Source of the DNA: Candidatus Obscuribacterales bacterium
Lineage (GTDB): Bacteria > Cyanobacteriota > Vampirovibrionia > Obscuribacterales > Obscuribacteraceae
NCBI GenBank assembly: GCA_020050685.1
Contig: JAGVKG010000065.1
Location: 17,984-81,983 of the forward strand
DNA length: 64,000 nucleotides
Direction: 5' to 3'
The notes under the pieces were generated by a model, which saw nothing but the letters and a program-made list of their open reading frames with translations, was not told the origin of the DNA and made no database searches. This document shows, piece after piece, positions 12,047 through 52,217 of this stretch (positions within the stretch are counted from its first letter, which is position 1; each line of letters begins with the position of its first letter). Made by a program: the position numbers and the translations under genes.

Positions 12047-15000
12047 ATGAAGCCAATTCGTTTACTAATGACTTTGATATTGTCGCTGCAGTTGGTTATG
12101 CCAATGGCGGCGTTTGCCGGGCCGTTTCGGGATAGTCACCCTCTCGGGGGAGAAGCCGGGACAGGTACGCAGTCAACTGGCGGACAAACAACATCCGGAC
12201 TGGACCCAAGTGCTTTGACTGGTCTAGCCGCGGTAAGTGCCGGCGCGCTCAATTTGGATTTGGGATCGACTGCGCGTACGTTTAGCCTCGAATCCTTGGG
12301 TGTGTCGTCATTGACCTTGAGGATGGCAGGGCAACATGTAACATTCTCTGCTTCTGACATGCTGACTCCGGCGCAATTTGTTGCGGCTCAGCAAGTGCTT
12401 TCTGGCAGCCGGCAGGCCCTGCGCCTTGGTGTAGATGGTAATGCAGTCGGTGGTGCTTTTAGTCTTCAGCCGAATCTGGTGCAAAATGTCGGTAATTTGG
12501 TGGTGCCGCAAAATGTCTCGGCATTGCTGGATGTGAGCACGGTTGCTTCGCTGAATCTGTCTGGTAATTTGGTGAATGCAGGCAAGCTTTATGCATTTTC
12601 TCAGACGGGTGAAACAGGCGCAGCAAACATTTCGGCGCTTAATTTATACAACCAAAGCGGAGCATTGATTTCTACTTTTGCTCCCGAGATTGGCCGTGCG
12701 GCTCAGCTTGCACCTGATAATGCTCTCCCTCTTGATCTCAATTTGTCGGCGATGGCAGATATTATCAATGCCGGTACGATTCTTAGCTCGGGCAATCTTT
12801 CGCTCAATGCCGGTGGTGTGATTATCAACCAGGCAGTTAGTGGCTCGTCGGCAGTGCCACTGATGCAGGCAGCTAACAATGTCAATTTGGTTTCCCAACT
12901 TGGATCAATTACTAATGCCGGTGTGATTGCCGCATTGGCCGGCAATCTAAATATTGGTTCGGCCCAGTTGAACAATATTGTGATCAACAATGCCGGCGGA
13001 TCGCTTGAAGCACTTAATGGTGCGATTTCCGTGCGTGATGCCAACTTTGTCGGCATGGCACATATCTATATCAATGGTGGCAATCTCTTGAGCAAAACTT
13101 TAGACCTTTATTCTGGAGAAGGTAAGGTCAAGGTGAATGTCGATAATTTGACCGGACACGTCAATGTGCGTGGTGGTGAGGCGCATGTTACAGCTTCAAC
13201 CAATGTTTTGACTATTGGTGATATTTGTCTGGTTGGTGATCCTAGCTTTTACAACACAACCGGCGATGTCTTGATTGATGGCGATTTGCAATTCAATGGT
13301 GAGGATCTGGCAATTGTTGCTTTTGGCGACATTATTACCGGCTCGAATGCTGGTTTGATTGATACCAGCAATGCTGCCGGCGATGGTGGCAGTATCACCA
13401 TGGTGGCTGGTGCAAATTTCACAGCACTTGCCTTAATTCCACCGCCCGCACCAGGTGAAGTGCAACCTCCCATACCGGATGCTAATGACGCAAACATTGA
13501 GCTGACGATTAATGACGGCTGTTGTGGTGGTGGCAAAATTGATCTTTCAACCGGCGGCGCTATTACTATGTTGAACTCTGCCTCCACTGGTGGTGATGGT
13601 GAAGGCGGTGATATTAATCTCATTGCTTTTGGTGGTGTTTTGGCTAATTCCGGAACAATCAAACTGCCATCGGCAGTGACAATTTCTGCTGGCGGTAATG
13701 GTGTTGGTAACAATGGTGATGTGATTGTTACGGCAGGGGCAATTCGCGGAAATGCGATTCAGATTGGCGGAATAAATACTGCAACTGGTGCGGAGGGTAG
13801 TGGTGTAGTTGATATCACGGCTGCACAGCCGACTGCTGTCGGTGTCACCATTGTCGGTGGAACTATAACTGGGGGAGCATTTGGTGCAGGCACTGCTAAC
13901 ACTGCCTCAATTAGCACTGGTTCAATTGCCGCCAATGGGGTAACAATTGATCTGACATCGGGAGCCAATGTGCTGGTTAACGGCTCGATCGTAAATAATG
14001 CGACAACTGCTGCTGCTGGTGGAACTGTAAACATCAACATCAATAGTTCGCTTGCTTTTCAAATTGGTGGCAGTCCGGCTTTCAATGGGATTACCGGTTC
14101 AATTTCGGCCAATGCCGGTGCCACATCAGGTGATGGCGGCGCTATTGCCATAATCAATGTTGGCACAGGTGGAATTGTCTTGGACTCTACGGCATTGCTT
14201 TCCGTAAATGCATCATCGGGAGCTGGCGGTGGTGCGGGGGGATTCATTCAATTGCGGGCATCAGGAACCGGTGCATCGCTCAGCTTAGCTTCCGGAACTT
14301 TAGCCGCGAATGCCACGACTGGGGCAGCACTGCCTGAGGGTGGTGAAATTATTCTTTTTGCAGCCGGAACAATTTCTGTGGTTGGCGCTACTGCATTGAC
14401 CTTGAGCGCAAACGCCCAAGGTATTGGTAATGGTGGTACGATTTCCGTTACAGCCCAAGGAACAGCGGCTGATTTAGCATTCGGTCAAGCAGCCGGACAA
14501 TTTATTATCTCTGCCCAAGGTGGGCAGGCAGCATCCGCTTCCGGAGACGGCGGTAAGATTACCTTTTTTGCGGGACGTAATCTGACAATCGATTCGACAG
14601 CAATAAGTGCAAATCCTTTAGGCAATAATGGCGACGGAGCAGATTTTACTATGACTGCTAGCGGATTACCTGGTGGACAGCTGGCAATTTCCGGCAACTT
14701 TGATGCATCAGCGGTTGGTAGTGGCACAGGCGGTACAATAATTGCTACATCGACAGCCGGCAGACTATCAGTAAGTGGCAATATCACTGCTAACGGTGGT
14801 GTAACAGGTGGTGGTGGTTCTGTTCGTTTGAGTCTTGCCTCCACTTCGCCATTTACGATTTTCAATGGCTCAACTAATAATGGCGTATCTGGCAATATCA
14901 CGGTCAATGGCGGTACCACTTCTGGTGACGGCGGCACAATTCTGCTTTCCGCTCAAGGTGGTGCAGTAAATATTGCTTCTGCTCAAGCCTTATCGGTGGC

Positions 15001-18000
15001 ACCCTTAGGCTCGGGTAATGGTGGCGGTTTGGACTTCACTGCTGCCGGCATCACAATTGGACCAGGCGTGCTTTCTGTGGATGCCCTGGGTAGCGGTATT
15101 GGTGGAACTATTAGTTTCAATAGTTCAAATGGGATTTTTGTCGACGGTTCAATTTCCGCAAATGGTGCTGGTATTGGTGATGGTGGCACGATCCTTTTTG
15201 TCAGTGAGTTTGCTTTGCCCTTCAATCTTGCTTTAGGCGAAAGCATAAATGGGATTAATGGTAATGTCAGTGCTCTGGCCGGAAATACGTCTGGCGCCGG
15301 TGGTCATATAAGTATGGCCAATAGCAGCGGCCTAAACCTGACTGCTAGCTCCAATATTTCTGTGGCGACCAATCAAGGAGATGGTGGCACCATTGCCCTT
15401 AGTTCAAGTGGTGGTGGAGTGACGGTATCATCCCGCACAATTTCAGTCGATGCGCAAGGCACAGGAAATTTCCAGGGTGGTGGTATCACCTTAACTGGTG
15501 CATTTGTTACAGTTACCGGCAGCTCGAGTCTCAACCTTAGTGCTAATGCCAGAGGTGCTGGCGATGGTGGCAGTATAGTGGTTGGCACTACTGCTTCTAC
15601 TTCCAATTTGCAAATTGGTAGTAATCGGGGACAGATAAGCATATCTGCGCTTGGTGGTCAGTTGGGTAATGCCGACCTAATTGGTGGTGCCGGCGGTAAT
15701 GTGACAATATCTGCCGGTCAGAATTTGACTGTCGATATGGCAAGCGTGTCAGTTGGTCCGCAAGGAAATAATGGTGATGGTGCACTACTTACATTTACTG
15801 CCGGCATTTCCAGTCTGGGCGCACTTTTAGTTAATGGCGATATCAATGTTTCTGGAGGCGGCTCTGATGGAACGGGCACGGGAGGTGGGGGAACAATTAC
15901 GCTATCCAGTGCTTCGAGCGAGACGATGGATCTGGCTTTAGGCGAAGACAAAAATGGTGTCAATGGTTTGTTGATTGCCAATGGTGGCACAGGTGGTGGC
16001 GCCGGTGGAGCGATTTCCGTTTCTAACTCATTATCCGGTGGTATCAATCTTGCCGATACGGCAAATCTTTCAGTCAATGCTGGACCAGGCGGTCTTGGTG
16101 GGGATGGCGGGTCAGTTTCTTTAGCTTCTGATTCTGGATTACTGACTATTAGTGGTGGAACAATCAATGTGGATGCAAAAGTTAGCGGGCAAGGCGGTTT
16201 AATTGAATTGCGAGCCCCTGAGTCTAATTTGATTGTTGCTGGTGTTAATCCTTTAATCTTGAGTGCAGATGCAATTGGCACTGGCATTGGTGGTACGGTT
16301 GCCGTGGTTGCTGGTGGCGATACTGCCGATCTGACAATTGGTAACACTAGCGGACAAATTAGTATATCGGCTCGTGGTGGCACTACTTCTGGCAATGGCG
16401 GAATCGTATCAGTATCCGCTGGACAAGATTTGACCGTCAACGCTGCACAATTGAACCTGGCGCCGCGTGGCACGACTGGTGCCGGCGGCACGCTAACGCT
16501 TGCAGCCGGCAATGGTGACGACGAAGGTAATCTACAAATCATTGGCAGTGTTAGTGTTAGTGGCACACAAGCTGGTGGCGGACAAGGCAATGGTGGCATT
16601 GTTTCCCTCTTATCTGATAGCAGCTCACCATTTGTCATTTCTAATAGTCCGAATGTTAATGGACTTGCGGGAAGCGTATCATCAAATGGTGGCACAACAC
16701 TTGGTGGTGGCGGCACGGTTTCTATAACCAATAGCGGTACTGGCGGTGTGACGCTTACTAATACTTCTTTAGTTACCGCTTCAGCATCGCTTGGTGGCGG
16801 CTCCGGGGGCAGCATTGGTTTGATTGCTCAAGCTGGAACACTGACTTTGCCGGGCGGTCAGATAATCGATGTTGATGGCGAAAGTGGTGGCACTTTTGAT
16901 GGCGGTATTGTTACTTTACGTGGAACTTCGCTTGAAATTACGGGCGGTCAGTCTTTCAGAATCAGAGCTAATGGCACGGCAACCGGCGCTGGTGGCAGAG
17001 TCGCTTTGATTTCTACCGGACTGTTTTCTGATATGGCGATTGGCAATGGTGCCAACCAATTTGAGATTTATGCCAATGGTGGTGCTACATCTGGAGATGC
17101 TGGTACAGTAGAACTTACATCAGGCCGTGGTCTGACTGTTAACCCCAGTTTCATGCAAGCAGGAGTTGGCCTTTCCGGAAAGGGAGCAACTCTTTCTTTG
17201 CGATCGGGAGCAACGGGCGATACTTCTAGTGCTGGCAGTTTACTTGTTACTGGTTCCATAAACGCAAATGGCACTGGCTTAGGTCAAGGTGGTGACGTCT
17301 TGCTATCATCGGCCGTTGGCAATTTGCTGGTTCAGGGCAGTGTTTCTGCCAGAGGCTTGGCTTTGGGAGCCGGTGGTTCTGTAACCCTAAATTCGAATTC
17401 GACTACTCAGTTTGTCGTCGGTGCTGGTGCTGTTACAAATGGTATTCAAGGCACTGTTGATACGCAAGCCGGTGTCGGTGATGGGGGCACGATTGAAATT
17501 GCTAATGCCGGCACTGGTGGCATTGGTATTCCCAGTTTGGCCAATCTGATTACGCAAGCATCTGCTGGCAGTGGCGGCACGGTGAATTTAGCTACCCTTG
17601 GAACATTGAATATTGCTGCCGGCACTTTGTCTCTTGATGCTCAAGGGGCGGGCAACTTCTCTGGCGGGAATTTTACTCTTTCTGCCTCGATAATTTCTGT
17701 TAATGGTGGCGGAACACTTAACCTCTCGGCCGATGCGCTTGGCACTGGAGCTGGTGGTGCAGTCTTTATTGAATCGACTAATTCATTGGCTGGTCTGGGA
17801 ATTGGTATTGCCACCAGCTTTGGACAGTTGACCGTTTCTGCTGAAGGTGGATCGGTGGGATCTGGCGCCGGCAATGGTGGCTCTCTTACAGTTAGATCAG
17901 GTGCTAATTTGTCAATTGATACTGCCGATATTCAGGTAGCACCGCGAGGCACCACCGGTAATGGTGCAAGCTTGAGCTTTACAGCTGGTATTGCTGGTGA

Positions 18001-21000: not shown

Positions 21001-24000
21001 TCTCCGTCTGACTGCCAATGGCACTGCTACTTTATTGGTTTCTCATGGCATTATTGTTACTGGTTCACTGGCGGCAGCTGGAAACGGTGATGGCTCTGGT
21101 GGTCTTATTTCACTTATGGCTCCTCTCGGTAATGTGTCTCTTACAGGCTCATTATCTGCAGCCAGTGGTGCTGGTGTCGGCAATGGTGGTTCAATAGTAG
21201 TGACTGCGGGTAGTCCGCAAGTATTTACTATCGGAACTGCAGCTCCGTCAAATGGCGTTGGCGGGGGCATCTCTGCAAGTGCTGCCGGCACTAGCGGCGC
21301 TGGAGGCACTGTCACAATTACCAATGCTGCAGGTATTGCCTTTGCGGCTCTCAGCAGTGTTACTGCCGATGGTGGCACCATCGGTAGTGGTGGTAATGTC
21401 ACTTTGTCTGCTTTGTCTGCCGCACTTAGTATAGATGGGGGCACAATTTCTGCAGTTGCTCATGGAGCCGGTGCATTTTCCGGCGGACAGATTTCCTTAT
21501 TTTCCTCATCGTTTACTACTTCTGGATTCGGAGTTGGTCCTTTATCGCTTTTGGCCGATGGTTCCGGCACAGGTGCAGGTGGATCTATATTGATTAAGGC
21601 CTCGGGAATAACTGCTGATTTAACAGTCGGTGGTGGCATAGGAGATATTTTGATTAATGCCCGCGGCGGCTCTCTCCTCTCGGCTGCCGGTGATGGCGGT
21701 TCTGTGACAATTGAGGTTGGCAGAAATCTTACCGTTAACACTGCCTCGCTTTTGATAGGGCCTTTGGGCAACAATGGCTCTGGCGCCAATATTAGTTTGC
21801 GTGCTAATGCTTCCGTATCTTGTGATACTGCTGGTACATTAACAGTTACGGGAAGTCTTAATGCGTCCGGAGTTGGCATTGGCAATGGCGGCAATCTTGA
21901 GTTGATTTCAGCTGCTGGCAATCTTTCAATTACCGGCAGCGTTTCGGCTAATGCGCAAACAACTGGTAATGCCGGTTCAATCACCATGCTTTCCAATAGT
22001 GTCAGCCCATTTTTGGTTGGTGCTGCGATCACTCCGCTAAATGGTATCACAGGAACAATTTCTGCCAACGCTGGTTCGGTTAAAGGCGCAAGTGGTTCAA
22101 TTGCAATTACTAATGAGGGCATTGGTGGTATTGAATTTAGACCGGGCTCGAGCGTTTCTTTGGCTGCATCTGGAGGCGGTGGCTCTGGTGGCACTATCAC
22201 CATTGATGCTAATGCCGGTCCATTGTCTATTGCTGGTGGCACGCTTTCTGTCAATGCAAGCGGAGGTGGTGCCTTTAGTGGTGGCACAATTTCTCTTTCT
22301 GGACTAGAGCTGGTTTTGATCACTGGCTTGGGTACTGGACCTTTAAACTTGTTAGCCAATGGTGCAGGTACAGGTGCTGGTGGAAAAGTAAGTATTGCCC
22401 TTATAGGCGCCTTGTCTGATTTGGAAATTGGCTCAGGTTCGGGGCAAATATCCATTAGTGCTTTGGGTGGAGGAGCAGGAGGAAATGGTGGCATTGTTAA
22501 CCTTTCAGTGGGCCGCAATTTACTTGTTGATCCATTAGCGCTTTTAGCTAATCCGCAAGCCGGTTCTGGTAGCGGTGCGACAATAAATTTGGTTGCCTCA
22601 CAGGCCAGTGCGGGCGACCTAGTCGTTAGTTCCAGTCTCAGTGCAAACGGCATTGGTGATGGTGCCGGTGGTCTATTGAATTTGTCGTCCGCCAGAGGCA
22701 ATGTTTTAGTTTCCGGAGCGCTATCTGCTAATGGATCCGGTGAAGGTGATGGTGGCAGCGTTACCGTAACTTCTGCATCGGCTCTAGATTTCTCTGTCGC
22801 CAATGCAGCCATTGTGAATGGCTTAACGGGATTGATTAGTGTAGCTGCCGGTGCCACATCCGGAAATGGTGGCACGATTGTCCTCACGAATGCTGGCAGC
22901 GGCGGGATTACATTAGGTACAACTGCCAGTTTGAATGCAGACGCGTCAGCTGGTGTTGATGGTGGTGCTGGTGGCACGATCAAACTATTAGCTGGCAATG
23001 GTCTTGTGGAGATTTTGTCTACATCTCTTTCGGCTAACGGCACAGGCACTGGTGCATTTGATGGTGGTGTGATTGTTGTTACGGCTGGAACGCTTTTCGT
23101 CAATGGTGCCAGCGCCCTGGCAATTAGTGCCAACGGTTCAGCTTTGGGTAATGGTGGTTCAATCGAATTGGGCTCTACTGATACGACCTCAAGTCTTAGT
23201 ATCGGTGCCAGCCATGGCAGCATGACTTTGACGGCTACTGGTGGTTCTGGCGGATCTGCTACCGGTAATGGTGGCTCGGCAACAGTTTCAGCTGGTGGTG
23301 GCATTGCACTAGATCCAACTTCATTGGCCCTTGATCCTCAAGGCACAAATGGTGCTGGAGCAACAATGAGCTTTACATCATCCCAAGGTAACATTCAAGT
23401 TTTCGGTAATTTGTTTGCCAACGGCGTTGGTGAGGGAAATGGTGGCACAATTTCTCTCTCGGCAACGGCCAACAATCTTTTTGTCAGTGGTTCGCTTTCG
23501 GCTAGTGCTACAGGTGAAGGGAAGGGGGGAGCAATCACTCTCACTTCCAACAGTCAAGCTAATTTTACTGTTTTTTCCGGCGCCACGGCAAATGGTGTCA
23601 TGGGTACAATCTCGGCTACAGGCGGCGGCACGGGTGGAGATGGTGGCACAATCGTTATTAGTAATCAAAATGCAACGCTTGGGGCCGCTGGAGTAACTTT
23701 GGCCAATGCCGGAGTGATTTCGGTTTTTGCATCTCCAGGTGGTGGTTCAGGTGGCATCATTGCTATCAGCGGACAAAGTATCAATATTGGTTCCGGACCG
23801 AATCTTTCTGCTAACGCCTCTGGTAGCGGGCAATTTGTTGGCGGCTCTATAACATTGATAAGCAACAGTGAATTGTTTGTCAATACCGGCATCACGGCAA
23901 ATGGTGGCACAAATGGTAGCGGTGGATCTATTGAATTGGTTTGCAATAGCATTTTTGCCTTTACACTTGGGCCGCAGGCTGAACAAAACGGTGTGACCAA

Positions 24001-33000: not shown

Positions 33001-36000
33001 TAATGCAGTACCTATAGATTTGTCTGCTAATGGAGTAGGAGCCGGAAGTGGTGGCACGATTACTCTAAGTCAAAACAGCTCATCCTTGTTTAACATCTCA
33101 TCGACCAGCACATTTGTTGGTGTGGTCGGTACTATATCTGCCAACGCCGGCGCGGCTACCGGCAAGGGTGGAAGAGTCGTGATTTCCAATGCTGGTACTG
33201 GTGGTATCACCTTGGCAGACCCGGCATTGATATCTGTGGCTGCTTCTCTCGGCGGTGGCAATGGTGGATCTATTTCTATGTCGTCCACTGCTGGAACGAT
33301 AACGATAGCTGGTGGCACGCTGGCTGCAGATGCATCTTCTTCTGGTGATTTCCAAGGTGGTGCAATTACAATTAATGCCGCTAAGTTCAGCATGACTGGA
33401 GCTACTGCTCTTACCTTGAGCGCCAAGGCTAACGGTATTGGCAATGGTGGCACGGTATCCGTGACAACAACAGGGCCGTCTGCTCCCAACCTAACTATCG
33501 GAACACTGGCTACCAATTTGAGAGTTGTTGCGCCTGGCGGTACCAATGGTGGCGCTGGTGGAATAGTCTCAGTTATATCAGCGGCCCGTTTGATAGTTGA
33601 TCCATTAGGCTTGGATATCGCACCGGCTGCCGGCAAGAATGGTAATGGTGCATCGCTCACGCTGACAACCACTGCGGGTAATTTATCCATAACTGCAAGC
33701 TTGAATGTCAATGGAGCAGGCACAGGAAGTGGTGGCACAATGTCGCTTTCTTCGGCTAGCGCCATTTCTGTTGCGGGCAGTTTAAGCGCCAATGGTGGCA
33801 CAAGTGGAAGCGGTGGCTCGATTAGTCTTTCGACAAGCAGCACCGCACCATTTTTGTTGACAACAGGCACCTCTTCTAACAATAGCCTGACCGGAACAAT
33901 CACAGCCGATAGAGGCGGTTCAATATCTTTGAATATGGCATCAAGTGGTGGTATCACGGTTGGTGCTTTGGCAGTACTTGCGGCTAATGGAATTGCATCA
34001 GGTGGTGCTGGAGGTTCAATCACCATTGTTACAACTGGAAACTTGACGGTTGGTGGTGGCGTGCTGAACGCAAACGGTCAAGGAACCGGCGTAGCCAATG
34101 GCGGAGCCATTTCCATCACTGCATTGAGGGTGATGAATGGTGGCGGAGTGGCGATGGCGCTGAACGCAAATGCCTCGGGTATTGGCAATGGTGGCAATGT
34201 TGCGGTTACAGCCACTGATGCAACAGCAAGCTTTACAGTTGGAGCCGGTGCCGGACAGTTTGCAATTTCTGCCACTGGCGGATCCGTTGCCTCGCTTGCC
34301 GGAGATGGTGGCACAGTTACATTACAAGCCGGAAATAGCTTGACTGTGAATACCGGATCGCTTAGCGCAGGTCCAATAGGTGCGCATGGCAGTGGTGCGA
34401 CGCTAATCTTTAATGCCGGAAGTGCCGGTTCAGGAACACTGTTTGTCAACACTGGCGGAACGGCAGGAATCCTAAGTGCCAATGGTGTTGGTCGCGGTGA
34501 TGGCGGGACTATCAGTCTGACATCGAGTCATGGCACAGCATTTACCATCGGCGCTGGTGTCGTCAGTCAAGGTGTGAATGGCATTATCAGTGCTAACGCA
34601 GGGGCTGTTGATGGTAATGGTGGATCGATTAGTGTCTCAAATAACAATACATCCGGTGCAGGTGGTATCACTGTATTAGCGGTTAGCAATCTGTCCGTCG
34701 CACCATCACTAGCTGGAGGCGATGGTGGTTCGCTTACCTTCAATTCTCCCAATGGCACAATCAGAATTGCATCCGGAGTGCTATCGACATCGGCAGCTGG
34801 CCTCGATTCCTTTGATGGCGGAGAGATAAGAATCAGTGGACTGGCATTTGTGGTGACTGGTGCAGGAAGTCTTATGCTTGCTGCCAATGCTACTGGTGCA
34901 GGTGATGGTGGCTCTGTCGAAGTAAAGACAGTTGGTGCTTCTGACCTGACGATGGGAGGTGCTGCTGGACAATTCACAGTGCAAGCAACTGGTGGCACCG
35001 GTGGTATTGATCCTTCTGATGGTGGTGACGGTGGCTCAGTAACAATTGTTAGTGGACGTGGTTTGACTATTAGCAACACGAGCAATATTCTCGCCGGACC
35101 GCTTGGCACAAATGGTGATGGCGCTGACATTACATTGAGTGTATCTTCTGTATCGTCACCAGGATCTGGATTCATGAAGATATTGGCTGGTGACTTGAAT
35201 GTTAATGGTCGTGGTGATGGCGATGGTGGCACTGTCATTTTGACAGTAAATATGAATGGCGGATTTGGCGTTGGTCTAGGCGTACTGGGAACTGCAAACG
35301 GAATGGTAGGTACAATTTCGGCAAACGGATCTGGCACGGGCGCAGGCGGAGAAATAAATGTAACAAACGCCTTTGGTTCGCTCACACTGGGAGCCTTAGC
35401 CAATATTTCTGCCAATGGTGGATCTACATCCGGTGCTGGTGGCACGATATCCATGAGTGCGACAAATTCGACTATGACAATTGTGGGAGGCAATACACTT
35501 TCTGCTAATGGTACTGGCGCAAGTGGAAACTTTAACGGCGGCGAAATTACTTTGTCTGCATTGACAATAGCCGGCAACGCTTTGACTCCAATGACCATAT
35601 CGGCAAATGGAGCCGGTGCCGGAGCCGGTGGAGCCGTATCGATAACCAGCACTAATAAGTCGTCTAATCTCAATAATAATTTCCTGACCATCGTGGCTAA
35701 TGGCGGCTCAACAAATTCTGGCGCCGGTGATGGCGGAGTTATTACGATGTCATCCGGTTCGCAACTAATTGTTGATTTATCCCGAATAACTGCCGGACCA
35801 CTGGGTGCTGCCGGACTTGGTGCGACTATTAAACTGACGAGCGGCACTGGCGGCTCTGGTGCCCTTACAGTTAGCAACGCTGTGACTGCTGGTGTCCTGC
35901 CTGCTTCTATTGCCCTAACTTCCTCCAGTGCAATTTTGCAAAGTGGTGTCGTGCCAATAGCGGCTGTTAGCTTATCGCTAACTACAACCGGATCGGGATC

Positions 36001-38539
36001 AATTGGCTCATCTACTGCGCCAATTCAGGTATCAGTTCAGTCGCTTGCTGTGACTACGGGCACAGGTCGTGCATACATTAATAGTACTGGTGCGCCGAAC
36101 CTGACGATTACTACATCGACTCTTGGTGGTACGTTACAAGTTACTGCTGATTGTCCGATATGCGTTGCCGGTGTATTAACTGCATCTGGTATTACATTGC
36201 AGACGACGGCTGGTTCTAACTCAGACATTACCTTAGCTGCCAATTTGAATGCTTCGCAAATTACTCTTGGTGCTGACGGCTCAGGAAAGATTCAGCAAGC
36301 GTTCGGAACATTGACCGGCAACTCAGTAAGACTGACCAGTGGTTCCGGCAACATTGGATCGTTCTCCAAACCAATCTTTCTTAGTGCCAAGAATTTCACC
36401 GCCATCACGACTGGTTCTGTATTCATTAATAGTGCAAGCACGATTGCTGTCGGTCCCTCATCGGCGGGCGGTGCATTCTCCTTGCTCTCGGCGCGACCAA
36501 TCACTACCACTGGTCTGATTACAGGCAATGCCATTACCCTGGCAACAGCCACTGGCTCGAATGCAGCAATAAACATTACTGCTAGCCTAACGGGAACTGG
36601 TGTTGGTAGCACAATTAGCATTAATGCAAATGGATCAGGTTACATTGCTACATCCGGTGGTGCAGTACTTTCTGCATCCAGCGTTTCACTGACCAGCAAC
36701 ACAGGTAATATTGGTAACACTGCCGCGATTGCCACCACAACTGGAGCCCTTGCTGCTAACACTTTGGGTAACGTAACAATTACCAACCAAGGAGCTGTAA
36801 CGGTTAGTGATTCAATGGCTGGCTCGGCAACGGGCAGAATATTTAAATTGACGTCTACAGGCACCATCACCACATCTGGTGTTATCTCCGGAAATAAAGT
36901 TGACATATCTGCCAGTGGAACTGGCAACATCATCGTGGGAGATGACATCAATGGTACTGGAACAAATAGCACGATTAGCTTGAAGACTTCGAGCAAGACA
37001 GCTGGCACTGGAACAATCACCAATCCGGCTGGCGCTCTGACTGCTACAAATGTTACGCTTAGCACCGCCAGTGGTGACATCGGAGCCTTACTTACACCCA
37101 TATCTGTTTCCACAACCAATTTGACAGTAACAGCCGGGAGCGGCACCATCTTAGTTGATGGCTTTGTTTCAAGCACCGGTCCTGTGACACTCAAGAGCTC
37201 AAAGGCAACTGATGCCTTGAATATCACATCTGCTGGTAATATCTTGGTGCGTGGAACAATTTCGGCAATTACGCTCACATTAGCTGGCGCTGCAGCAAGT
37301 AATGCCGGTATAGATGTAGGTAGCGCAATTACTGGCAAAGGTGCAACGGCAATTGTAAATATCTTTGCTGATGGTTCAGGCACCATAACCAAGTCTGGCA
37401 GTGGATCAATTACCGCACCATTCATAAACCTGAGCAGCGGCACAGGCGACATTGGAACTGTTGGTACACGTCTTGCAACCAAAGCAGCTAACGGAACTGC
37501 TGCTGGTACATTAACCGTTAACACTGGTGGTAGCGCATTCATCACCAATTCCAGCAATATGTTCTTCGATACGTCAGTGGTCGGCACCACACTTCAGCTT
37601 GTTAACGCAGGAACAATTACCACTGTCGGTGATATTTCCGCTAACGCTTTGACCTTGCAAACTTCAAAGACTGGAATAATCGTTGGTTCTAATTTAACTG
37701 GAACTGCTTCTGTGACGCTAATAACCACTGGCAATACGCCGATTAGCCAAACTGCCGGTGTAATCACTGCGCCATCGGTAACCTTCACCACTGATGCAGC
37801 CGCTATCGGAACGTCACTTGCATCGATGCAAACTGCAACTGCAAGTCTGACAGTGAACATGGTTAAATCTACCTCGTCAACAAAAAATGGTGCCTTCGTA
37901 AGTAACACCGGTGCATTGGTCCTCAATGATTCCGTTGTTGGTGGATCGTTTGTTCTCACCAATACCGGTAGCCTAACTATTAACGACATGACCACGCGCA
38001 ACGGTACGATTCTCATGCAAGCCAATGGTGCTGGTGGCATTGCCCTCACGGTCACTGCCGCTAGTGTGGTTTCTGCCACAAATGGCGGTGTTACTTTGCA
38101 GAACAATGACGTTGCTGCTGGAACAATACTTATCGATACCGGCGCGCAAGTTTTGACTAAAGCAAAGACATCCCCGCTTGGTCAATTGGCAATTGTGATT
38201 GGTGCAGTTCCAGGCTTGCCGGTTGTCGGACCTAATCCGGGTAATGTGACGATAGTCGAACAAAACGGCGGTCAAGTATTCTTTGGCGCAAATGGTATCA
38301 CTGCCAACGCGCCGAACAATGCACTTACTGCTATTACGCAACGGGTAATCTTTAGCACAGGAGCACTCGGTGCTGGTGCAATCACAATCAATGGTGGCAC
38401 AACGATAACTGGCAAAGTTGGTTACGACCAATCACCATCCGAGCCAGGAGAAATGATCGTAGACACTGGCGAAAGCGGATTAGGCGACGATGAATCCGGG
38501 GACGAATGGACAGTGCTCGAATCCGTATCGGCCAAATAG
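12047..38539 (+). CDS. Giant secreted repeat protein, about 8,830 aa (putative beta-solenoid surface fibril/adhesin-like protein of unrecognised family)
   Basis: A single uninterrupted ORF (track start TTG 12035; first ATG at 12047 preceded by GGAG). The N-terminus MKPIRLLMTLILSLQLVMPMAAFA/GPF looks like a Sec signal peptide. The body is Gly/Ser/Thr/Ala/Asn/Ile-rich with recurring G-[ND]-G-G-[ST]-[IV] turns. No other frame or strand here has an ORF longer than 614 codons. Confidence 0.85.
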   Translation: MKPIRLLMTLILSLQLVMPMAAFAGPFRDSHPLGGEAGTGTQSTGGQTTSGLDPSALTGLAAVSAGALNLDLGSTARTFSLESLGVSSLTLRMAGQHVTFSASDMLTPAQFVAAQQVLSGSRQALRLGVDGNAVGGAFSLQPNLVQNVGNLVVPQNVSALLDVSTVASLNLSGNLVNAGKLYAFSQTGETGAANISALNLYNQSGALISTFAPEIGRAAQLAPDNALPLDLNLSAMADIINAGTILSSGNLSLNAGGVIINQAVSGSSAVPLMQAANNVNLVSQLGSITNAGVIAALAGNLNIGSAQLNNIVINNAGGSLEALNGAISVRDANFVGMAHIYINGGNLLSKTLDLYSGEGKVKVNVDNLTGHVNVRGGEAHVTASTNVLTIGDICLVGDPSFYNTTGDVLIDGDLQFNGEDLAIVAFGDIITGSNAGLIDTSNAAGDGGSITMVAGANFTALALIPPPAPGEVQPPIPDANDANIELTINDGCCGGGKIDLSTGGAITMLNSASTGGDGEGGDINLIAFGGVLANSGTIKLPSAVTISAGGNGVGNNGDVIVTAGAIRGNAIQIGGINTATGAEGSGVVDITAAQPTAVGVTIVGGTITGGAFGAGTANTASISTGSIAANGVTIDLTSGANVLVNGSIVNNATTAAAGGTVNININSSLAFQIGGSPAFNGITGSISANAGATSGDGGAIAIINVGTGGIVLDSTALLSVNASSGAGGGAGGFIQLRASGTGASLSLASGTLAANATTGAALPEGGEIILFAAGTISVVGATALTLSANAQGIGNGGTISVTAQGTAADLAFGQAAGQFIISAQGGQAASASGDGGKITFFAGRNLTIDSTAISANPLGNNGDGADFTMTASGLPGGQLAISGNFDASAVGSGTGGTIIATSTAGRLSVSGNITANGGVTGGGGSVRLSLASTSPFTIFNGSTNNGVSGNITVNGGTTSGDGGTILLSAQGGAVNIASAQALSVAPLGSGNGGGLDFTAAGITIGPGVLSVDALGSGIGGTISFNSSNGIFVDGSISANGAGIGDGGTILFVSEFALPFNLALGESINGINGNVSALAGNTSGAGGHISMANSSGLNLTASSNISVATNQGDGGTIALSSSGGGVTVSSRTISVDAQGTGNFQGGGITLTGAFVTVTGSSSLNLSANARGAGDGGSIVVGTTASTSNLQIGSNRGQISISALGGQLGNADLIGGAGGNVTISAGQNLTVDMASVSVGPQGNNGDGALLTFTAGISSLGALLVNGDINVSGGGSDGTGTGGGGTITLSSASSETMDLALGEDKNGVNGLLIANGGTGGGAGGAISVSNSLSGGINLADTANLSVNAGPGGLGGDGGSVSLASDSGLLTISGGTINVDAKVSGQGGLIELRAPESNLIVAGVNPLILSADAIGTGIGGTVAVVAGGDTADLTIGNTSGQISISARGGTTSGNGGIVSVSAGQDLTVNAAQLNLAPRGTTGAGGTLTLAAGNGDDEGNLQIIGSVSVSGTQAGGGQGNGGIVSLLSDSSSPFVISNSPNVNGLAGSVSSNGGTTLGGGGTVSITNSGTGGVTLTNTSLVTASASLGGGSGGSIGLIAQAGTLTLPGGQIIDVDGESGGTFDGGIVTLRGTSLEITGGQSFRIRANGTATGAGGRVALISTGLFSDMAIGNGANQFEIYANGGATSGDAGTVELTSGRGLTVNPSFMQAGVGLSGKGATLSLRSGATGDTSSAGSLLVTGSINANGTGLGQGGDVLLSSAVGNLLVQGSVSARGLALGAGGSVTLNSNSTTQFVVGAGAVTNGIQGTVDTQAGVGDGGTIEIANAGTGGIGIPSLANLITQASAGSGGTVNLATLGTLNIAAGTLSLDAQGAGNFSGGNFTLSASIISVNGGGTLNLSADALGTGAGGAVFIESTNSLAGLGIGIATSFGQLTVSAEGGSVGSGAGNGGSLTVRSGANLSIDTADIQVAPRGTTGNGASLSFTAGIAGEGVFSMTGALSADGVGTAGGGSVFIRTTSASSLNVGGTITANAGAGAVTGTSLNGGTINIINSGTGGITFSNADTIAANAGGGGKGGTVNISSLLGPITIGGGSISANGSGCGAFDGGTISMVSNSLAVLPLSANALVLTANAVGNGKGGTVSVTAAGAASNIVVGNGAGQISIFARGGTAGSTAGDGGSITLSATGDVNVTNSAFLDASPQGVDGNGQNLTLTTQSVTGNLSADGVGFGSGGTITITSPTDNVIVAGSVTANGGTSGNGGTISITSDSDSAFVVGPAATVNGVTGALTANGGASFGSGGSVTVTNNGGGGVSLSAAAVLSVAGSAAGGAGGSLTVAAPIGTLTLSGASLSANAGGSGPFNGGKIALSGRMLNTGVAATTTLSANAVGTGSGGSISLVATDTTANLVVGNGAGQVTISATGGTGGLTPSTAGNGGTVLLSVGGNLTINPASLTVGPLGTNGNGASVTLAAGTAVTSSLTKTLTINGTLNVAGAAGGSGTGGVAKLTAGSSSGDGTTFGTVVIDGGISAQGSGTGNGGTVSVNYLASSTFNIGTGAAGANGIAGSINAASGATGAGGSISIVNSGTGGINVNAASDLSITASGGAGGALTVSAPGGALSFGGGTVSASSAGFGDFSGGTIALTGQTFSISGSALILNANAVGLGNGGTISVSGSGGVSSLTVGNAAGELEAFARGGSALSAAGNGGSITISMGGSLTVNSTFLNASPLGTNGNGGKLSLSAASQASGSLTVTNGLDASGNGSGIGGTIVVQSSGALLGFNGTLSITGAVNASGGTTASAGTILLSANATSAISVAGALTANGGATSGNGGTINVTNFGTNVASGTTLSSAPSSSAVGSGAGGSIKLIANQGTLSIANGTTSASAAGANDFNGGQILFAASSLSITGGSFLTLNANAAGGGAGGSVSVLATGATSDISVGNAAGNIRVFATGGTGGSTIGNGGRIALTAGRDLLIDSTHLSADALGTNGNGGNLRLTANGTATLLVSHGIIVTGSLAAAGNGDGSGGLISLMAPLGNVSLTGSLSAASGAGVGNGGSIVVTAGSPQVFTIGTAAPSNGVGGGISASAAGTSGAGGTVTITNAAGIAFAALSSVTADGGTIGSGGNVTLSALSAALSIDGGTISAVAHGAGAFSGGQISLFSSSFTTSGFGVGPLSLLADGSGTGAGGSILIKASGITADLTVGGGIGDILINARGGSLLSAAGDGGSVTIEVGRNLTVNTASLLIGPLGNNGSGANISLRANASVSCDTAGTLTVTGSLNASGVGIGNGGNLELISAAGNLSITGSVSANAQTTGNAGSITMLSNSVSPFLVGAAITPLNGITGTISANAGSVKGASGSIAITNEGIGGIEFRPGSSVSLAASGGGGSGGTITIDANAGPLSIAGGTLSVNASGGGAFSGGTISLSGLELVLITGLGTGPLNLLANGAGTGAGGKVSIALIGALSDLEIGSGSGQISISALGGGAGGNGGIVNLSVGRNLLVDPLALLANPQAGSGSGATINLVASQASAGDLVVSSSLSANGIGDGAGGLLNLSSARGNVLVSGALSANGSGEGDGGSVTVTSASALDFSVANAAIVNGLTGLISVAAGATSGNGGTIVLTNAGSGGITLGTTASLNADASAGVDGGAGGTIKLLAGNGLVEILSTSLSANGTGTGAFDGGVIVVTAGTLFVNGASALAISANGSALGNGGSIELGSTDTTSSLSIGASHGSMTLTATGGSGGSATGNGGSATVSAGGGIALDPTSLALDPQGTNGAGATMSFTSSQGNIQVFGNLFANGVGEGNGGTISLSATANNLFVSGSLSASATGEGKGGAITLTSNSQANFTVFSGATANGVMGTISATGGGTGGDGGTIVISNQNATLGAAGVTLANAGVISVFASPGGGSGGIIAISGQSINIGSGPNLSANASGSGQFVGGSITLISNSELFVNTGITANGGTNGSGGSIELVCNSIFAFTLGPQAEQNGVTNLVSAQAGNAGGNGGEIVVTNNAAGGITLTNTNNISVQASPGGGAGGTIDFEAPVGVLSIASGNLSASAGGAGSFSGGEITFDASSLVVTGSTFLTLFADASGSGNGGTIIVKTETGSGLTIGNQTGNLSIFARGGSAASVAGDGGSIEIASGGNLTVDPQALQAGPRGVSGKGATLKLTAGVTTQGTLFVSGDLLADGVGSADGGSIALSSHNNSEFIIGSSAVSSGVQGRISAQAGTIAGGGGKILVSSTGTGGISLLDLSDLSVTPVSGAGGTIELLSSAGTLTIASGTLFASASGSGNFNGGQINLGAAGFSIAGGGALNLLANGRFEGSGGGITIAISNDQDLTIGNGAQQLTISATGGIAGSVNGDGGHVTINVGGNLTVNPQYFTVQPLGDEGGGAEIELGAGRAGSGNLFINGILDASAVGDRDGGSIILTSASDTPFTIGATATVNGVFEVRANGGAVVGDGGAIVIGAEGLGGIAIPSPDKVSVRAGSIGIGGTIALLADSGTEAAPLTIGGGTLAVDARGAGDNDGGVLILRGSILTVTGPNALLLSANGSGDGVGGTISVNLRASTSDLTIDNASGGITLSATGGSSGSTSGDGGVIVMSVGRALFVNAAAVNAQALGVNGEGALLTFTAGNLLTGGLSVLGNLSANGVGTGAGGSITLSSKTAAVFVSGNVSASSTGSGSGGTISISSVSGLGVAFTVDSSATTNGVTGQILAEQGPLSSGEGALGGSITISNFGEGGITLPDPANVSVVSTQAASGGGTIVLDAVANSQAPGALTIGAGVLNAAANGAGDFDGGTISLIGSSLSITNGGFLTMAAGAVGAGNGGTVTVTVSGLTSDLTIGTAAGQFIADASGGSAGSIAGNGGAINISAGRNLTVNDTSFVLVAPRGDNGNGGALRLSAATGGSGTLTIGGANPIVASGVGEGNGGTVLLSSNSTTALTVPAVITANAGDKAGNGGVITIRNSGSGGILFGSALINISANGSKRTGNGGTIRIEAPVGPVTIGGGDISVSCSGCGVQNGGEISITAQSLVVLGGVGTGPLNLKANAAGAGNGGTISVTSTSATTDVTIGGLTGQITVSATGGTSILGIPTSIFGDGGKINLTSGRNLVIDPAFLNADPLGLNGNGAQITLITNGANGTISGDLSADGVGKGSGGLIRISAPNGNVLVTGSLSANADQGATGSGNGGTVELTSSSSTSFVIDPTATTNGVQGTIAAIAGLLAGNGGTISVVNSGTGGITLGALAALNVNGSVGGGSGGTVTISAAKGGAATGQITIAGGSISANGQGVGVYNGGKIDIFGLSFVNSGVTFATLSANGSGSGNGGQVSVVASSDTTDITIGSAGGNLEIFARSGLTNGNGGSITITAGRNLTIDQSVMLADPRGTNGNGGTLNLTSGAASTNPAADLKINGIGDLDVSGAGVGSGGVLKAISNTGDLLIEGNIIADGGTVGDGGSVTLSFRSNNNFNVGGVVTTNGVDGYIHANSGSVSGSGGVIGISNLNTTLGAGGLNIPDGTFLSASASAGDGGIISGSTPGGTITVGSGTMTVSAGGVGSFNGGEISFAGAAFTITGGAPLILTADAVGSGNGGKISIIGQALASNLTVGNVGNQLEAFARGGSIASGSGNGGSITIKVGGNLTVSDTSLIDAGPRGTNGNGASYILAAGNAANSSLSVTGSLNGSGVGVGNGGLVSATSGLAGQFTGSLTITGGVTASGGTNGIGGEITLVANSAVALSVGGTLTANGGTLLGNGGFIFATNPLSGGITLGGVPSAAGSTGGGNGGSIELTSTLGALSIPGGGAGSPASASAGGAGTFNGGEIRLTGTALNVTGGTFLALTANGVGAGNGGIIVVNASTASLTVGTLAGNITLSATGGTGGGTPSSTGDGGTLSLSSGLNITVNAASSNFVANPLGTNGRGANYYLVAGSAGVGSIAVNGGGLDASANGDGSGGNILARSLTGNVFIAGDVLADAGSGTGNGGTITVLANSATAFAILPAALVNGIQGTISADAGGVQGDGGIISITNLGIGGVRFGAGADITVDGSSGAGGGSGGALTIAAPTGTIAVAGGSLSANGGGPGVDGEFRGGQIQLTALLIQNDPLASAPLTLTANAAGRGLGGQVSVIATGSEADITIGTAAGEISISATGGSLGSLDGAGGIVVVSAGRNLTVHTAALIANPEGTNGAGAIFKLAATTAVNSGELIDCDVPGTLAIIKDIGFDSIDAAGRGDADGGIIILSAIAGNVTVASELIADAGSGIGNGGTISITSNSPSPLLLEDTVSAKAGGVSGNGGTISAVNLGSGGISYTALTAITVSGSAGGGNGGSVSLIASGANAPITLATSSIAVNGGASGNGNGGRITITTSLLNMVQTAPTLLSANGSGNGNGGVISVTVAGNNVIMGTANGELMMQATGGSSGSSAGDGGTLRVTAGLNIGILDVGLVQSVFYAAPQGLSGSGANLSIISGVSGPSDIVVGVLGGLNGGAVGDGNGGSVVLNAGNSTAVAGFGDITVTGGPIITSADKNGSGGLQSITANSMNTLEAIGGGSSNGGTNSGNGGTILVTNTGTGGIQIDNTAVFEVKAFNGAVGGSGGVITFSAATGALRVQGGSIDASAGTQGNGGQVQVTALSIINATGVSAPLTIVADAAGTGTGGTVSITATSTTADLAVGTLPGQLTISAKGGSANSVGGDGGKISLSTGRNLSVNAAELAAQPLGTNGAGAAISLVAGTGPQGRLLVTNGNINASGNGIGKGGSITLVAASTTNFILGPTANNNGMTGLLLANAGATSGDGGSISITNRNSTNGQGGITISSTANLSANASLGGGKGGNISISAGDQSTSSTGMLTIAFGTLAVNAGGASGNFSGGTIQLAVSGITVGAGGALVLSADAVGTGNGGTVNVTTFGSSSNIIVGRASQQIAISAKGGSLGSTSGNGGTVALTSARSITVYLFDPAMPLIPAAITADPQGANGNGATISLIASTAGVGSLWVGGVNAVPIDLSANGVGAGSGGTITLSQNSSSLFNISSTSTFVGVVGTISANAGAATGKGGRVVISNAGTGGITLADPALISVAASLGGGNGGSISMSSTAGTITIAGGTLAADASSSGDFQGGAITINAAKFSMTGATALTLSAKANGIGNGGTVSVTTTGPSAPNLTIGTLATNLRVVAPGGTNGGAGGIVSVISAARLIVDPLGLDIAPAAGKNGNGASLTLTTTAGNLSITASLNVNGAGTGSGGTMSLSSASAISVAGSLSANGGTSGSGGSISLSTSSTAPFLLTTGTSSNNSLTGTITADRGGSISLNMASSGGITVGALAVLAANGIASGGAGGSITIVTTGNLTVGGGVLNANGQGTGVANGGAISITALRVMNGGGVAMALNANASGIGNGGNVAVTATDATASFTVGAGAGQFAISATGGSVASLAGDGGTVTLQAGNSLTVNTGSLSAGPIGAHGSGATLIFNAGSAGSGTLFVNTGGTAGILSANGVGRGDGGTISLTSSHGTAFTIGAGVVSQGVNGIISANAGAVDGNGGSISVSNNNTSGAGGITVLAVSNLSVAPSLAGGDGGSLTFNSPNGTIRIASGVLSTSAAGLDSFDGGEIRISGLAFVVTGAGSLMLAANATGAGDGGSVEVKTVGASDLTMGGAAGQFTVQATGGTGGIDPSDGGDGGSVTIVSGRGLTISNTSNILAGPLGTNGDGADITLSVSSVSSPGSGFMKILAGDLNVNGRGDGDGGTVILTVNMNGGFGVGLGVLGTANGMVGTISANGSGTGAGGEINVTNAFGSLTLGALANISANGGSTSGAGGTISMSATNSTMTIVGGNTLSANGTGASGNFNGGEITLSALTIAGNALTPMTISANGAGAGAGGAVSITSTNKSSNLNNNFLTIVANGGSTNSGAGDGGVITMSSGSQLIVDLSRITAGPLGAAGLGATIKLTSGTGGSGALTVSNAVTAGVLPASIALTSSSAILQSGVVPIAAVSLSLTTTGSGSIGSSTAPIQVSVQSLAVTTGTGRAYINSTGAPNLTITTSTLGGTLQVTADCPICVAGVLTASGITLQTTAGSNSDITLAANLNASQITLGADGSGKIQQAFGTLTGNSVRLTSGSGNIGSFSKPIFLSAKNFTAITTGSVFINSASTIAVGPSSAGGAFSLLSARPITTTGLITGNAITLATATGSNAAINITASLTGTGVGSTISINANGSGYIATSGGAVLSASSVSLTSNTGNIGNTAAIATTTGALAANTLGNVTITNQGAVTVSDSMAGSATGRIFKLTSTGTITTSGVISGNKVDISASGTGNIIVGDDINGTGTNSTISLKTSSKTAGTGTITNPAGALTATNVTLSTASGDIGALLTPISVSTTNLTVTAGSGTILVDGFVSSTGPVTLKSSKATDALNITSAGNILVRGTISAITLTLAGAAASNAGIDVGSAITGKGATAIVNIFADGSGTITKSGSGSITAPFINLSSGTGDIGTVGTRLATKAANGTAAGTLTVNTGGSAFITNSSNMFFDTSVVGTTLQLVNAGTITTVGDISANALTLQTSKTGIIVGSNLTGTASVTLITTGNTPISQTAGVITAPSVTFTTDAAAIGTSLASMQTATASLTVNMVKSTSSTKNGAFVSNTGALVLNDSVVGGSFVLTNTGSLTINDMTTRNGTILMQANGAGGIALTVTAASVVSATNGGVTLQNNDVAAGTILIDTGAQVLTKAKTSPLGQLAIVIGAVPGLPVVGPNPGNVTIVEQNGGQVFFGANGITANAPNNALTAITQRVIFSTGALGAGAITINGGTTITGKVGYDQSPSEPGEMIVDTGESGLGDDESGDEWTVLESVSAK
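13980..35880 (+). repeat. Coding array of about 28 degenerate super-repeats of about 225-260 aa (about 740-770 nt) inside the giant gene
   Basis: Landmark [FYN]-x-G-G-x-I was counted 28 times between about 15,470 and about 35,530, an average spacing of about 745 nt. One copy measured exactly: GCGAFDGG at 18329 to GSGPFNGG at 19094, which is 255 aa. There is a half-length unit near 23,830..24,215. Boundaries are approximate. Confidence 0.8.
35990..38170 (+). repeat. Second repeat class in the giant gene: about six Gly-poorer Thr/Ser/Ile-rich units of about 115-120 aa
   Basis: Landmarks recur at about 116-119 aa spacing: SGSIGSSTAPIQVS, SGNIGSFSKPIFLS, TGNIGNTAAIATT, SGDIGALLTPISVS, TGDIGTVGTRLAT, AAAIGTSLASMQT. 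Boundaries are approximate. Confidence 0.6.
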
Positions 38540-52202: not shown

Positions 52203-52217
52203 GAGGAGCTGCCTTAA

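Follow-up and report, generated by a model that had tools for sequence, protein, structure and literature searches.

The stretch of DNA analysed here, a 64,000-nucleotide segment of contig JAGVKG010000065.1 from Candidatus Obscuribacterales bacterium (GenBank assembly GCA_020050685.1; hereafter the window), contains a single gene on its forward strand (12047–38539) that encodes a protein of 8,830 residues with a computed mass of 818 kDa and a pI of 4.2. This giant protein is probably a Sec-exported, extracellular beta-helical fibre of its host, with a role in adhesion or surface architecture. The evidence comprises an uninterrupted reading frame that is kept in a related species, an N-terminal signal peptide, a confident all-beta structure prediction for the N-terminal module (N-module) and for the unit repeated along the chain, and membership of a large family described by no Pfam or NCBIfam model. 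The Obscuribacterales belong to the Melainabacteria, a non-photosynthetic sister lineage of the Cyanobacteria that is almost entirely uncultured, and to our knowledge nothing is known about the cell surface of the order.

An intact reading frame and its ortholog

The coding sequence was delimited on the basis of the open frame, codon usage, substitution pattern and an ortholog. The frame is open from a TTG codon at 12035, or an ATG codon at 12047, to the stop codon at 38537–38539, which gives 8,834 or 8,830 codons without a single internal stop, and its codon usage resembles that of the neighbouring genes. Across the same 26.5 kb, the other frames contain 514–659 stop codons, and the compositionally favoured antisense frame contains 80. 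The antisense strand accordingly bears many long, spurious open reading frames (ORFs) of 150–614 aa, the longest of those listed being at 21460–23304 (−, 614 aa), because of the G/A/S/T-rich codon composition combined with a strong GC skew (+0.10 to +0.18 in most 2-kb intervals). Such frames could mislead gene callers. The protein consists largely of Gly (20.9 %), Ala (12.7 %), Ser (12.1 %) and Thr (10.6 %), with Asp, Glu, Lys and Arg together accounting for 6.2 %, Phe for 2.2 % and Tyr for 0.2 %, and with only two Trp and 11 Cys in total. The strict motif G[ND]GG[ST][IV] occurs 51 times, against 0.2 occurrences expected after shuffling, G[ND]GG occurs 88 times, and the relaxed pattern GG-x-[IVLF] 262 times. 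The original prediction, made from the letters alone, was exact on the 8,834 open codons and on the 614-codon longest competing frame, and correct on the scarcity of charged and aromatic residues. It overestimated the number of G-[ND]-G-G-[ST]-[IV] turns, put at hundreds, a figure reached only with the relaxed pattern, and the mass, put at nearly 1 MDa.

At the DNA level, Tandem Repeats Finder detected no tandem array in the gene, the best self-match within it spans 70 bp (80 % identical), and no exact repeat exceeds 20 bp. With almost no self-similarity, there is nothing for an assembler to collapse or expand. Promoter and terminator consensus scans at both ends of the gene gave no match, and Rfam and tRNA scans returned a tRNA-Val as their sole match.

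Close variants of two proteins flanking the gene in the window are present in three independent Logan assemblies, and the locus was read in two of them, SRR29398965 (59.5-kb contig) and SRR31912327 (49-kb contig), in both of which the syntenic gene was called at 8,832 aa. The comparison covered 2,970 N-terminal and 2,013 C-terminal residues of the ortholog. This protein starts with the same MKPIRLL... and is colinear with the giant protein, with 75.7 % identity and 14 gap columns over the N-terminal part and 78.5 % identity and 10 gap columns over the C-terminal part. The flanking housekeeping proteins are 84–89 % identical between the window and the Logan locus, which therefore belongs to a related species and not to the same strain. 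A Nei–Gojobori analysis over 2,962 codons yielded a pN of 0.156, a pS of 0.642 and a dN/dS ratio of ~0.12, which is approximate because synonymous sites are near saturation; the ratio was 0.127 in the N-module and 0.115 in the repeats. By these comparisons, the gene is clearly under purifying selection and is functional. The assembly artefact or internal stops that the original prediction had named as a danger did not materialise, as there are no DNA repeats and no stops, and independent assemblies carry the syntenic gene. As far as sequence alone allows, the giant gene is real and not an artefact of assembly.

Anatomy and predicted fold of the giant protein

The protein begins with a signal peptide (residues 1–24, 12047–12118; MKPIRLLMTLILSLQLVMPMAAFA, with A-F-A before GPF) that has the classic n/h/c layout of MKPIR, a hydrophobic core and AFA, which marks the presumed cleavage site. 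It was modelled as a helix over residues 4–17 followed by disorder, and is kept in the ortholog. Besides two marginal stretches, it is the only strongly hydrophobic segment of the protein, and hydropathy analysis revealed no other transmembrane segment. Export across the inner membrane by the Sec pathway is well supported by these sequence features. A disordered Gly/Ser/Thr-rich linker follows (residues 25–64, 12119–12238), identified by its composition and by predicted local distance difference test (pLDDT) values of 35–37, and leads into the N-module (residues 65–626, 12239–13924), defined by conserved alignment columns and by the structure prediction, which is all-beta from residue 68. The N-module consists of an N-cap (LDLGST..., with a helix, TPAQFVAAQQVL) and an irregular beta-helix with a conserved GDP[ST]F[FY]N motif around residue 397, and has no detectable homology with the super-repeats that follow it (hhalign probability 6 %).

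The shaft (residues 627–7934, 13925–35848) was parsed by self-BLAST and an iterated hidden Markov model (HMM), which found 30 super-repeat domains with E-values between 1e-32 and 1e-77. They correspond to 28 full super-repeats of 221–261 aa and two halves of ~150 aa. Each super-repeat of ~250 aa comprises about eight coils of ~30 aa, with the consensus LSANGxGxGNGGTIxLxS. The super-repeats are 35–49 % identical among themselves, and each is 67–84 % identical to its positional counterpart in the ortholog, the next-best match there being 37–49 % identical. These identities indicate an old array that has escaped homogenisation and retained its number of copies. Owing to its old, diverged repeats, the gene could be assembled and aligned reliably, and it offers a useful case for studying the stabilisation of repeat arrays as opposed to their homogenisation.

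Downstream of the shaft, self-BLAST and motif positions delineated a Thr-rich C-module (residues 7935–8650, 35849–37996) with about six copies of a ~118–124-aa repeat, marked by G[SND]IG at positions 7984, 8101, 8220, 8343 and 8467. The ortholog matches it at 80 % identity, and relatives contain similar modules. The C-module is followed by a segment (residues 8651–8790, 37997–38416; …GNVTIVEQNGGQVFFGANGITA…VIFSTG…ITINGGTTITG, its motif also written …NGGQVFFGANGITA…VIFSTG…) that is common to short and long relatives and 76 % identical in the ortholog, and whose position and conservation suggest that it acts as a C-terminal cap. The chain closes with an acidic tail (residues 8791–8830, 38417–38536), ending in DEWTVLESVSAK, which contains 27.5 % Asp plus Glu and is 57 % identical overall in the ortholog. 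Within this tail, the last ~10 residues (codons 38507–38536), [DE]WTVLESVS[AV]K, are nearly identical in the ortholog (L084 14938–14967, −), and the preceding part has diverged. This terminal peptide, which holds one of the two Trp of the protein, may be a sorting or secretion signal.

Two regions were modelled with AlphaFold2. The first model, covering residues 1–660 and based on an alignment of 21 sequences, attained a mean pLDDT of 85.3 and a predicted template modelling score (pTM) of 0.82, and is almost wholly beta-strand after the linker. The second covered residues 7712–8830, with an alignment built from the 27 remaining super-repeats and the C-terminal regions of nine homologs, and was all-beta without sign of a barrel or helices, with pLDDT values of 92–98 for the last super-repeat and mostly 50–83 for the C-module. 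Long strands recur every ~30 residues in the models, matching one coil of a beta-helix. The best matches of the models in the Protein Data Bank (PDB) by Foldseek, although non-significant, are all beta-helical proteins, adhesins for the most part, and include EtpA, HxuA, IgA1 protease, EspP, Pet, Ag43, RsaA, tailspikes and antifreeze proteins. An all-beta structure is confidently predicted for the N-module and the super-repeat, and the models point to beta-helix geometry, with the giant protein as a beta-solenoid. At about 290 coils and the canonical rise of 0.48 nm per coil, the rod would measure about 0.13–0.15 micrometre.

In the arrangement that we propose, most of the polypeptide would fold into one continuous beta-helix rod. 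The N-module would start and cap the helix and, because of its position and conservation, is the best candidate for export recognition, anchoring or target binding. The 30 super-repeats would serve as a spacer or shaft, the number of repeats setting the reach, and the C-module and cap would end the helix. The mature protein would be extracellular or located at the cell surface, having passed the outer membrane through a transporter encoded elsewhere. By analogy with FhaB, EtpA and autotransporter passengers, its likeliest function would be adhesive or structural, either in adhesion to surfaces, particles or cells, or as a protective or spacing coat.

The N-module family and the genomic surroundings

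Searches for known families were conducted at several levels. Pfam-A and NCBIfam gave no match at E ≤ 1 for five large pieces of the protein, and with seven short pieces at E ≤ 10, Pfam returned PF05594 ('Haemagglutinin repeat', Fil_haemagg) in the N-module only (E 0.029, 15.5 bits, below the cut-off of 21.5). This model was also found in three of 19 relatives (best E 9.7e-5), and gave no match in the super-repeats. The domain of two-partner secretion (TPS) exoproteins (PF05860 Haemagg_act/TIGR01901) had no match in the giant protein, even at E ≤ 10 on short pieces, and PF05860 was present in none of the 19 relatives; a Foldseek comparison of the N-module with the EtpA TPS domain (8cpk) gave E ~1–2.4 and TM-scores of 0.15–0.30. 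No autotransporter barrel (PF03797) was detected by Pfam in the C-terminal 1,830 aa or in 300-aa pieces, where AlphaFold2 shows repeats and then the cap and tail, and neither the autotransporter repeats PF02415 and PF12951 nor the RTX repeats PF00353 matched anywhere in the protein. Among short motifs, NPN[LG] and LPxTG are absent (n = 0 each), there is no C-terminal hydrophobic segment for LPXTG-type anchoring, and GGxGxD occurs three times in 8,830 aa, as chance strings. Pfam found no Ig, cadherin or Big domains, and the models are beta-helical and not beads on a string. Searches of all PDB sequences with phmmer and profiles, for the N-module and for the C-terminal 899 aa, returned only noise, and neither the N-module nor two super-repeats had a tblastn match in 72,556 annotated plasmids.

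On these grounds, three classes were ruled out: sortase-anchored or Ig/cadherin-repeat adhesins (no LPxTG, no such domains), RTX/type I secreted adhesins (no PF00353, a signal peptide present, no HlyD/TolC in the window) and classical type Va autotransporters (no PF03797 barrel by HMM or AlphaFold2).

By contrast, database searches with the N-terminal 660 aa matched 27 proteins along the entire N-module at 30–49 % identity, with E-values down to 4e-109. Those with a named source derive from metagenome-assembled genomes (MAGs) of Candidatus Obscuribacterales, and two are named 'filamentous hemagglutinin' by JGI. A scan of one genome per GTDB species retrieved 113 relatives, and almost all of the 80 that were retained stem from MAGs of Obscuribacterales, Obscuribacteraceae or Melainabacteria, a single genome often contributing many; as the scan patterns came from the giant's own subfamily, this taxonomic result holds for the subfamily and not for the wider family. 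One MAG bin contains at least 12 paralogs, and tandem paralog pairs occur. An exhaustive HMMER search with an N-module profile found 2,647 representative clusters (at 50 % identity) with E ≤ 1e-3, of which 1,271 reached E ≤ 1e-30. The best 145 new matches have a median length of 1,327 aa, with maxima of 7,012 and 7,040 aa. At genomic loci, complete ORFs range from 873 to 3,841 aa, plus two shorter ones (323 and 631 aa) that may be truncated, and at sixteen further loci the ORF exceeds 3,400 aa, with a maximum of 3,900 aa, and has no stop by the end of the DNA examined. The giant protein is the longest member seen.

Family members share a signal peptide, an N-module of ~400–560 aa (LDLxST, GDP[ST]F[FY]N), a variable beta-helical shaft and a cap ('GG.VFFG..GI.....IIF'), and the giant fits this anatomy. 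A crude hydropathy test gave a signal-peptide-like start for 92 of the 137 members whose N-terminus is intact. The GNGG super-repeat is present in 66 of the 274 members examined, in no more than 10–11 copies each, and other members have different shafts. Judged by sequence, the giant is thus the family scaffold with an exceptionally long shaft, its length being maintained by selection, and the many paralogs, length variation and modular shafts would be typical of surface proteins. A search of 5.8 billion proteins with the super-repeat profile yielded 20 fragments, a yield that the word index and the fragmentation of assemblies probably kept low, and the C-module matched two proteins.

Some members depart from this layout. 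Two to six N-module/cap units joined by poly-Pro occur in a single polypeptide (P0120, 7,040 aa; P0147, 7,012 aa; P0028; L011 9770–17386; L040 9521–19867). In L011, L012, L022, L039 and P0029, a Pro-rich linker connects the cap to a globular domain of ~300 aa, at the end of which stands a conserved helix-like '...LKMAAALSMTT..HG.Y' motif. The post-cap extensions of L011 and L012 had no significant match in Pfam, and the giant lacks such a domain. A subfamily of ~1,000–1,050 aa, with both N-module and cap and with an N-terminal F-R-E-F-R...DR..AR..F motif before the N-module, tops the exhaustive search (P0012, P0014–P0019, P0030–P0053 etc.; L001). It occurs on JGI contigs of up to 734 kb and is not represented among the 80 Obscuribacterales loci. 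Several multi-copy MAGs are titled with unrelated phyla, namely SBAT01 as 'Chloroflexota' (L002, L025, L042, L073, L078), JAJPGY01 as 'Proteobacteria' (L011, L034, L070) and L063 as 'Bryobacterales', and these carriers are probably mislabelled or mis-binned.

A search of the open-access literature on Obscuribacter or Melainabacteria hemagglutinins, adhesins and secretion systems found no paper on the N-module family. A beta-helical surface fibre is well known as a kind of protein, whereas the N-module family is unfamiliar, with no Pfam or NCBIfam model and no significant structural neighbour. As regards the remaining claims of the original prediction, the Sec-type signal peptide is confirmed by sequence, model and ortholog, and the very long beta-solenoid fibre is supported by the confident all-beta models, including the last super-repeat, and by fold neighbours that, if non-significant, are all beta-helical. 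The lack of diagnostic TPS, RTX, LPXTG and autotransporter features, noted there by eye, now stands on HMM searches, and no piece of the protein has a significant family match, so that no characterised adhesin family covers its full length. The claim of an unrecognised family with its own architecture holds in that no Pfam or NCBIfam model exists, but the protein is not unique, with ~2,650 clusters of relatives, and its fold class is known.

The other genes of the window are of the housekeeping kind. Two LD-carboxypeptidase genes and an acyl-CoA dehydrogenase gene lie upstream of the giant gene, and a YjeF-type NAD(P)HX repair gene lies 45 bp downstream in convergent orientation. Other genes encode an oligopeptide ATP-binding cassette (ABC) transporter ATPase, a permease, a KdpE-like two-component pair and a tetratricopeptide repeat (TPR) protein, and the ABC genes are of the oligopeptide ATPase type plus a subfamily-B exporter 19 kb from the giant gene. 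The 80 related loci show no synteny with the window, and the survey of related genomes revealed many copies in Obscuribacterales without conserved neighbours other than paralogs. The short homolog P0019 likewise lies among housekeeping genes. Of 73 neighbours of 440–800 aa at related loci, the recurrent families were TPR proteins, kinases and histidine kinases, with no ShlB/POTRA protein. An apparent 20-locus cluster of conserved neighbours was rejected because single-linkage clustering had chained together histidine kinases, Ser/Thr kinases and response regulators. TPR proteins are the commonest mid-size neighbours (11 of the 73, L003–L081), and the one in the window is at 61863–62864 (−). 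They could reflect chance in TPR-rich genomes or a real partner.

Several further features of the locus were recorded. Just upstream of the giant gene are two ORFs of 98 and 84 aa without Pfam match (11021–11317 and 11348–11602, +), which were called as genes at the corresponding position in the related species (L082 11083–11379 and 11410–11664) and could represent a single split gene. The related species has two additional genes between YjeF and the 3' end of its giant gene (L084 12627–14855), one for a subtilisin-like Peptidase_S8 protein (451 aa) and one for a 210-aa product. Neither is present at that position in the window, and the peptidase could be a maturation factor. An ORF of 508 aa (54739–56265, +; 499 aa in the related species, L084 679–2178) has a signal-peptide-like start and no Pfam match, and is unlike an outer-membrane barrel. 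A b6f-type pair of Rieske [2Fe-2S] protein and cytochrome b6 genes (51606–53348, +) is kept in the related species and fits a Melainabacteria/Obscuribacterales host.

Alternative explanations and known systems

A number of observations weigh against the giant protein being an exported adhesive or architectural fibre. Foldseek gave no match at E ≤ 0.001 for either model against the PDB, or for the N-module against BFVD, with the best PDB matches at E 0.6–10, and the last ~160 residues of the second model were of low confidence (pLDDT < 50). Among ORFs of at least 150 aa in the 64-kb window, no Omp85/TpsB protein (ShlB PF03865 plus POTRA_2), HlyD or TolC protein, or component of a type II or type IX secretion system was found, and no export component recurs beside the 80 related loci, where the recurrent neighbours are only paralogs, signalling proteins and TPR proteins. 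The exit of the giant from the periplasm is therefore unproven, the Melainabacteria being diderms. Moreover, the length is kept within 2 residues (8,830 vs 8,832 aa) between the two species compared, which differ at about 22–24 % of residues. The repeat numbers of adhesins usually vary between species, so that near-exact conservation of length is atypical of them and hints at a more specific structural role.

Such a role could be that of an envelope-structural element, for instance in a sheath or an S-layer-like coat, or as a ruler or spacer fixing a set distance, where the exact length would matter. We regard this reading as possible but unlikely. It would account for the constant length and for repeats kept position by position without concerted evolution or change in copy number, and it agrees with the uniform, low-charge, acidic sequence and with the S-layer protein RsaA among the weak fold matches. 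However, the length comparison covers two species only, and lengths vary enormously within the family, so that a fixed length is not a family property. Apart from the two upstream LD-carboxypeptidases, no envelope-biogenesis genes adjoin the gene, and the RsaA match is non-significant, with neither Ca-binding RTX motifs nor a type I secretion system (T1SS) of the RsaA kind. A cryptic TPS (type Vb) exoprotein of the FhaB/EtpA kind, with the N-module as a strongly diverged TPS domain that an unlinked Omp85-type TpsB would recognise, has a similarly low probability in our estimation. The architectural logic is the same, with a signal peptide, a conserved N-terminal beta-helical module and a long variable shaft, the best fold matches, though non-significant, are the TPS exoproteins EtpA and HxuA, and both the weak PF05594 matches and the JGI 'filamentous hemagglutinin' names point that way. 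Against it stand the lack of any match to PF05860/TIGR01901-type models in the giant, and to PF05860 in all 19 relatives, the absence of NPNL/NPNGI, an N-module profile that finds no TPS structure among PDB sequences, and a Foldseek comparison with the EtpA secretion domain that remains at E ~1 and a TM-score of 0.15–0.30. A tpsB gene normally adjoins its tpsA, and ShlB/POTRA is neither in the window nor recurrent at the 80 loci.

The giant is very unlikely to be the stalk of a contact-dependent toxin such as CdiA or other polymorphic toxins, i.e. a rod with a C-terminal effector. Relatives with a Pro-rich linker and a ~300-aa C-terminal domain, tandem helix units or, in one case, a beta-propeller suggest modular, swappable C-termini, but the giant itself ends 40 residues past the cap with only an acidic tail. 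Pfam identified no toxin, immunity, VENN/PT-type or pre-toxin domain in the giant, the tested extensions or the downstream gene, which is the convergent housekeeping gene YjeF. An assembly artefact, or a decaying pseudogene whose frame is open owing to a biased, repeat-rich composition, can be practically dismissed. The window is apparently metagenome-derived, its proteins being found on one 97-kb contig in NCBI and JGI/IMG, and the biased composition keeps even the antisense frame unusually open (80 stops, longest ORF 614 aa). Conversely, there are no DNA repeats to mislead an assembler (the best high-scoring segment pair of the gene with itself is the 70-bp match at 80 %, the longest exact repeat the one of 20 bp), an 8,832-aa gene is present in independent assemblies from different runs, and the dN/dS ratio of 0.12 is accompanied by almost no indels.

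The exported beta-helical surface fibre thus remains our preferred reading. A more daring extension of it, to which we assign a rather small chance, is that the N-module, perhaps together with the 'WTVLESVSxK' tail, is recognised by an undescribed outer-membrane route for giant beta-helical proteins in Melainabacteria, and that the fixed rod length reflects a ruler-like structural function and not unspecific adhesiveness. If true, the route would either form a new, genetically unlinked branch of type V-like secretion or have no relation to it. The question raised is by what means an 815-kDa beta-helix would cross the outer membrane when no TpsB, barrel or T1SS is linked to it. In practical terms, a family model in Pfam or NCBIfam would annotate thousands of 'hypothetical' proteins and fragmentary metagenomic ORFs. 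We consider the missing secretion partner, the size of a family without a model, and an old, non-homogenised 30-unit array of constant length as the most notable aspects of the system.

Among known systems, the giant proteins of Omnitrophota are reported to reach 30,000–85,000 aa, with many transmembrane regions and with enzymatic and SecA-like helicase domains, and to be encoded close to genes for type II secretion (West-Roberts et al. 2023, bioRxiv 10.1101/2023.11.21.568195). They resemble the present protein in their uncultivated hosts, very long ORFs, paucity of HMM matches, beta-helix from structure prediction and proposed role in attachment (10.1101/2023.11.21.568195). The protein described here differs from them in consisting of a signal peptide and beta-helix only, without transmembrane or enzymatic domains or nearby secretion genes, and the main text of that report does not mention Melainabacteria or Obscuribacterales (10.1101/2023.11.21.568195). 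With the giants of the RTX/T1SS and S-layer groups (LapA, SiiE, MpIBP, RsaA), it shares the character of a giant, acidic, repetitive surface protein, and RsaA and a Ca-dependent beta-helical antifreeze protein are among its weak Foldseek matches. In contrast to RTX/T1SS adhesins, it has a Sec signal peptide, which T1SS substrates lack at their N-terminus, and is without PF00353, Ig- or cadherin-like modules and linked genes for an ABC transporter, membrane fusion protein (MFP) and TolC.

Like FhaB (Bordetella), EtpA (enterotoxigenic Escherichia coli), HxuA (Haemophilus) and CdiA, the giant combines a Sec signal peptide, a conserved N-terminal beta-helical module and a very long shaft of degenerate repeats. 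As in TPS exoproteins, the chain is acidic and poor in Cys and Trp, and EtpA and HxuA are its top, non-significant fold matches. Unlike TPS exoproteins, it has no TPS domain by HMM or motif, none by fold at significance, and no adjoining TpsB. FhaB and CdiA are 2–4 times smaller than 8,830 aa, and the filamentous hemagglutinin (FHA) repeats of ~20 aa contrast with its ~30-aa coils, which carry the GNGG turn motif and are organised in ~250-aa super-repeats. The C-terminus of type Va autotransporters forms a 12-stranded barrel, whereas that of the giant consists of beta repeats, a low-confidence cap and a 40-aa acidic tail. Even so, type Va passengers (Ag43, EspP, Pet, IgA1 protease and the chlamydial Pmp proteins) are right-handed beta-helix surface proteins that are Sec-exported like the giant, and some of them figure among its weak fold matches. 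The Pmp proteins are marked by GG-x-[ILV] and F-x-x-N motifs, and the N-module family resembles them in its many paralogs, its variable length and the presence of GG-x-[ILV] and F-x-x-N-like motifs.

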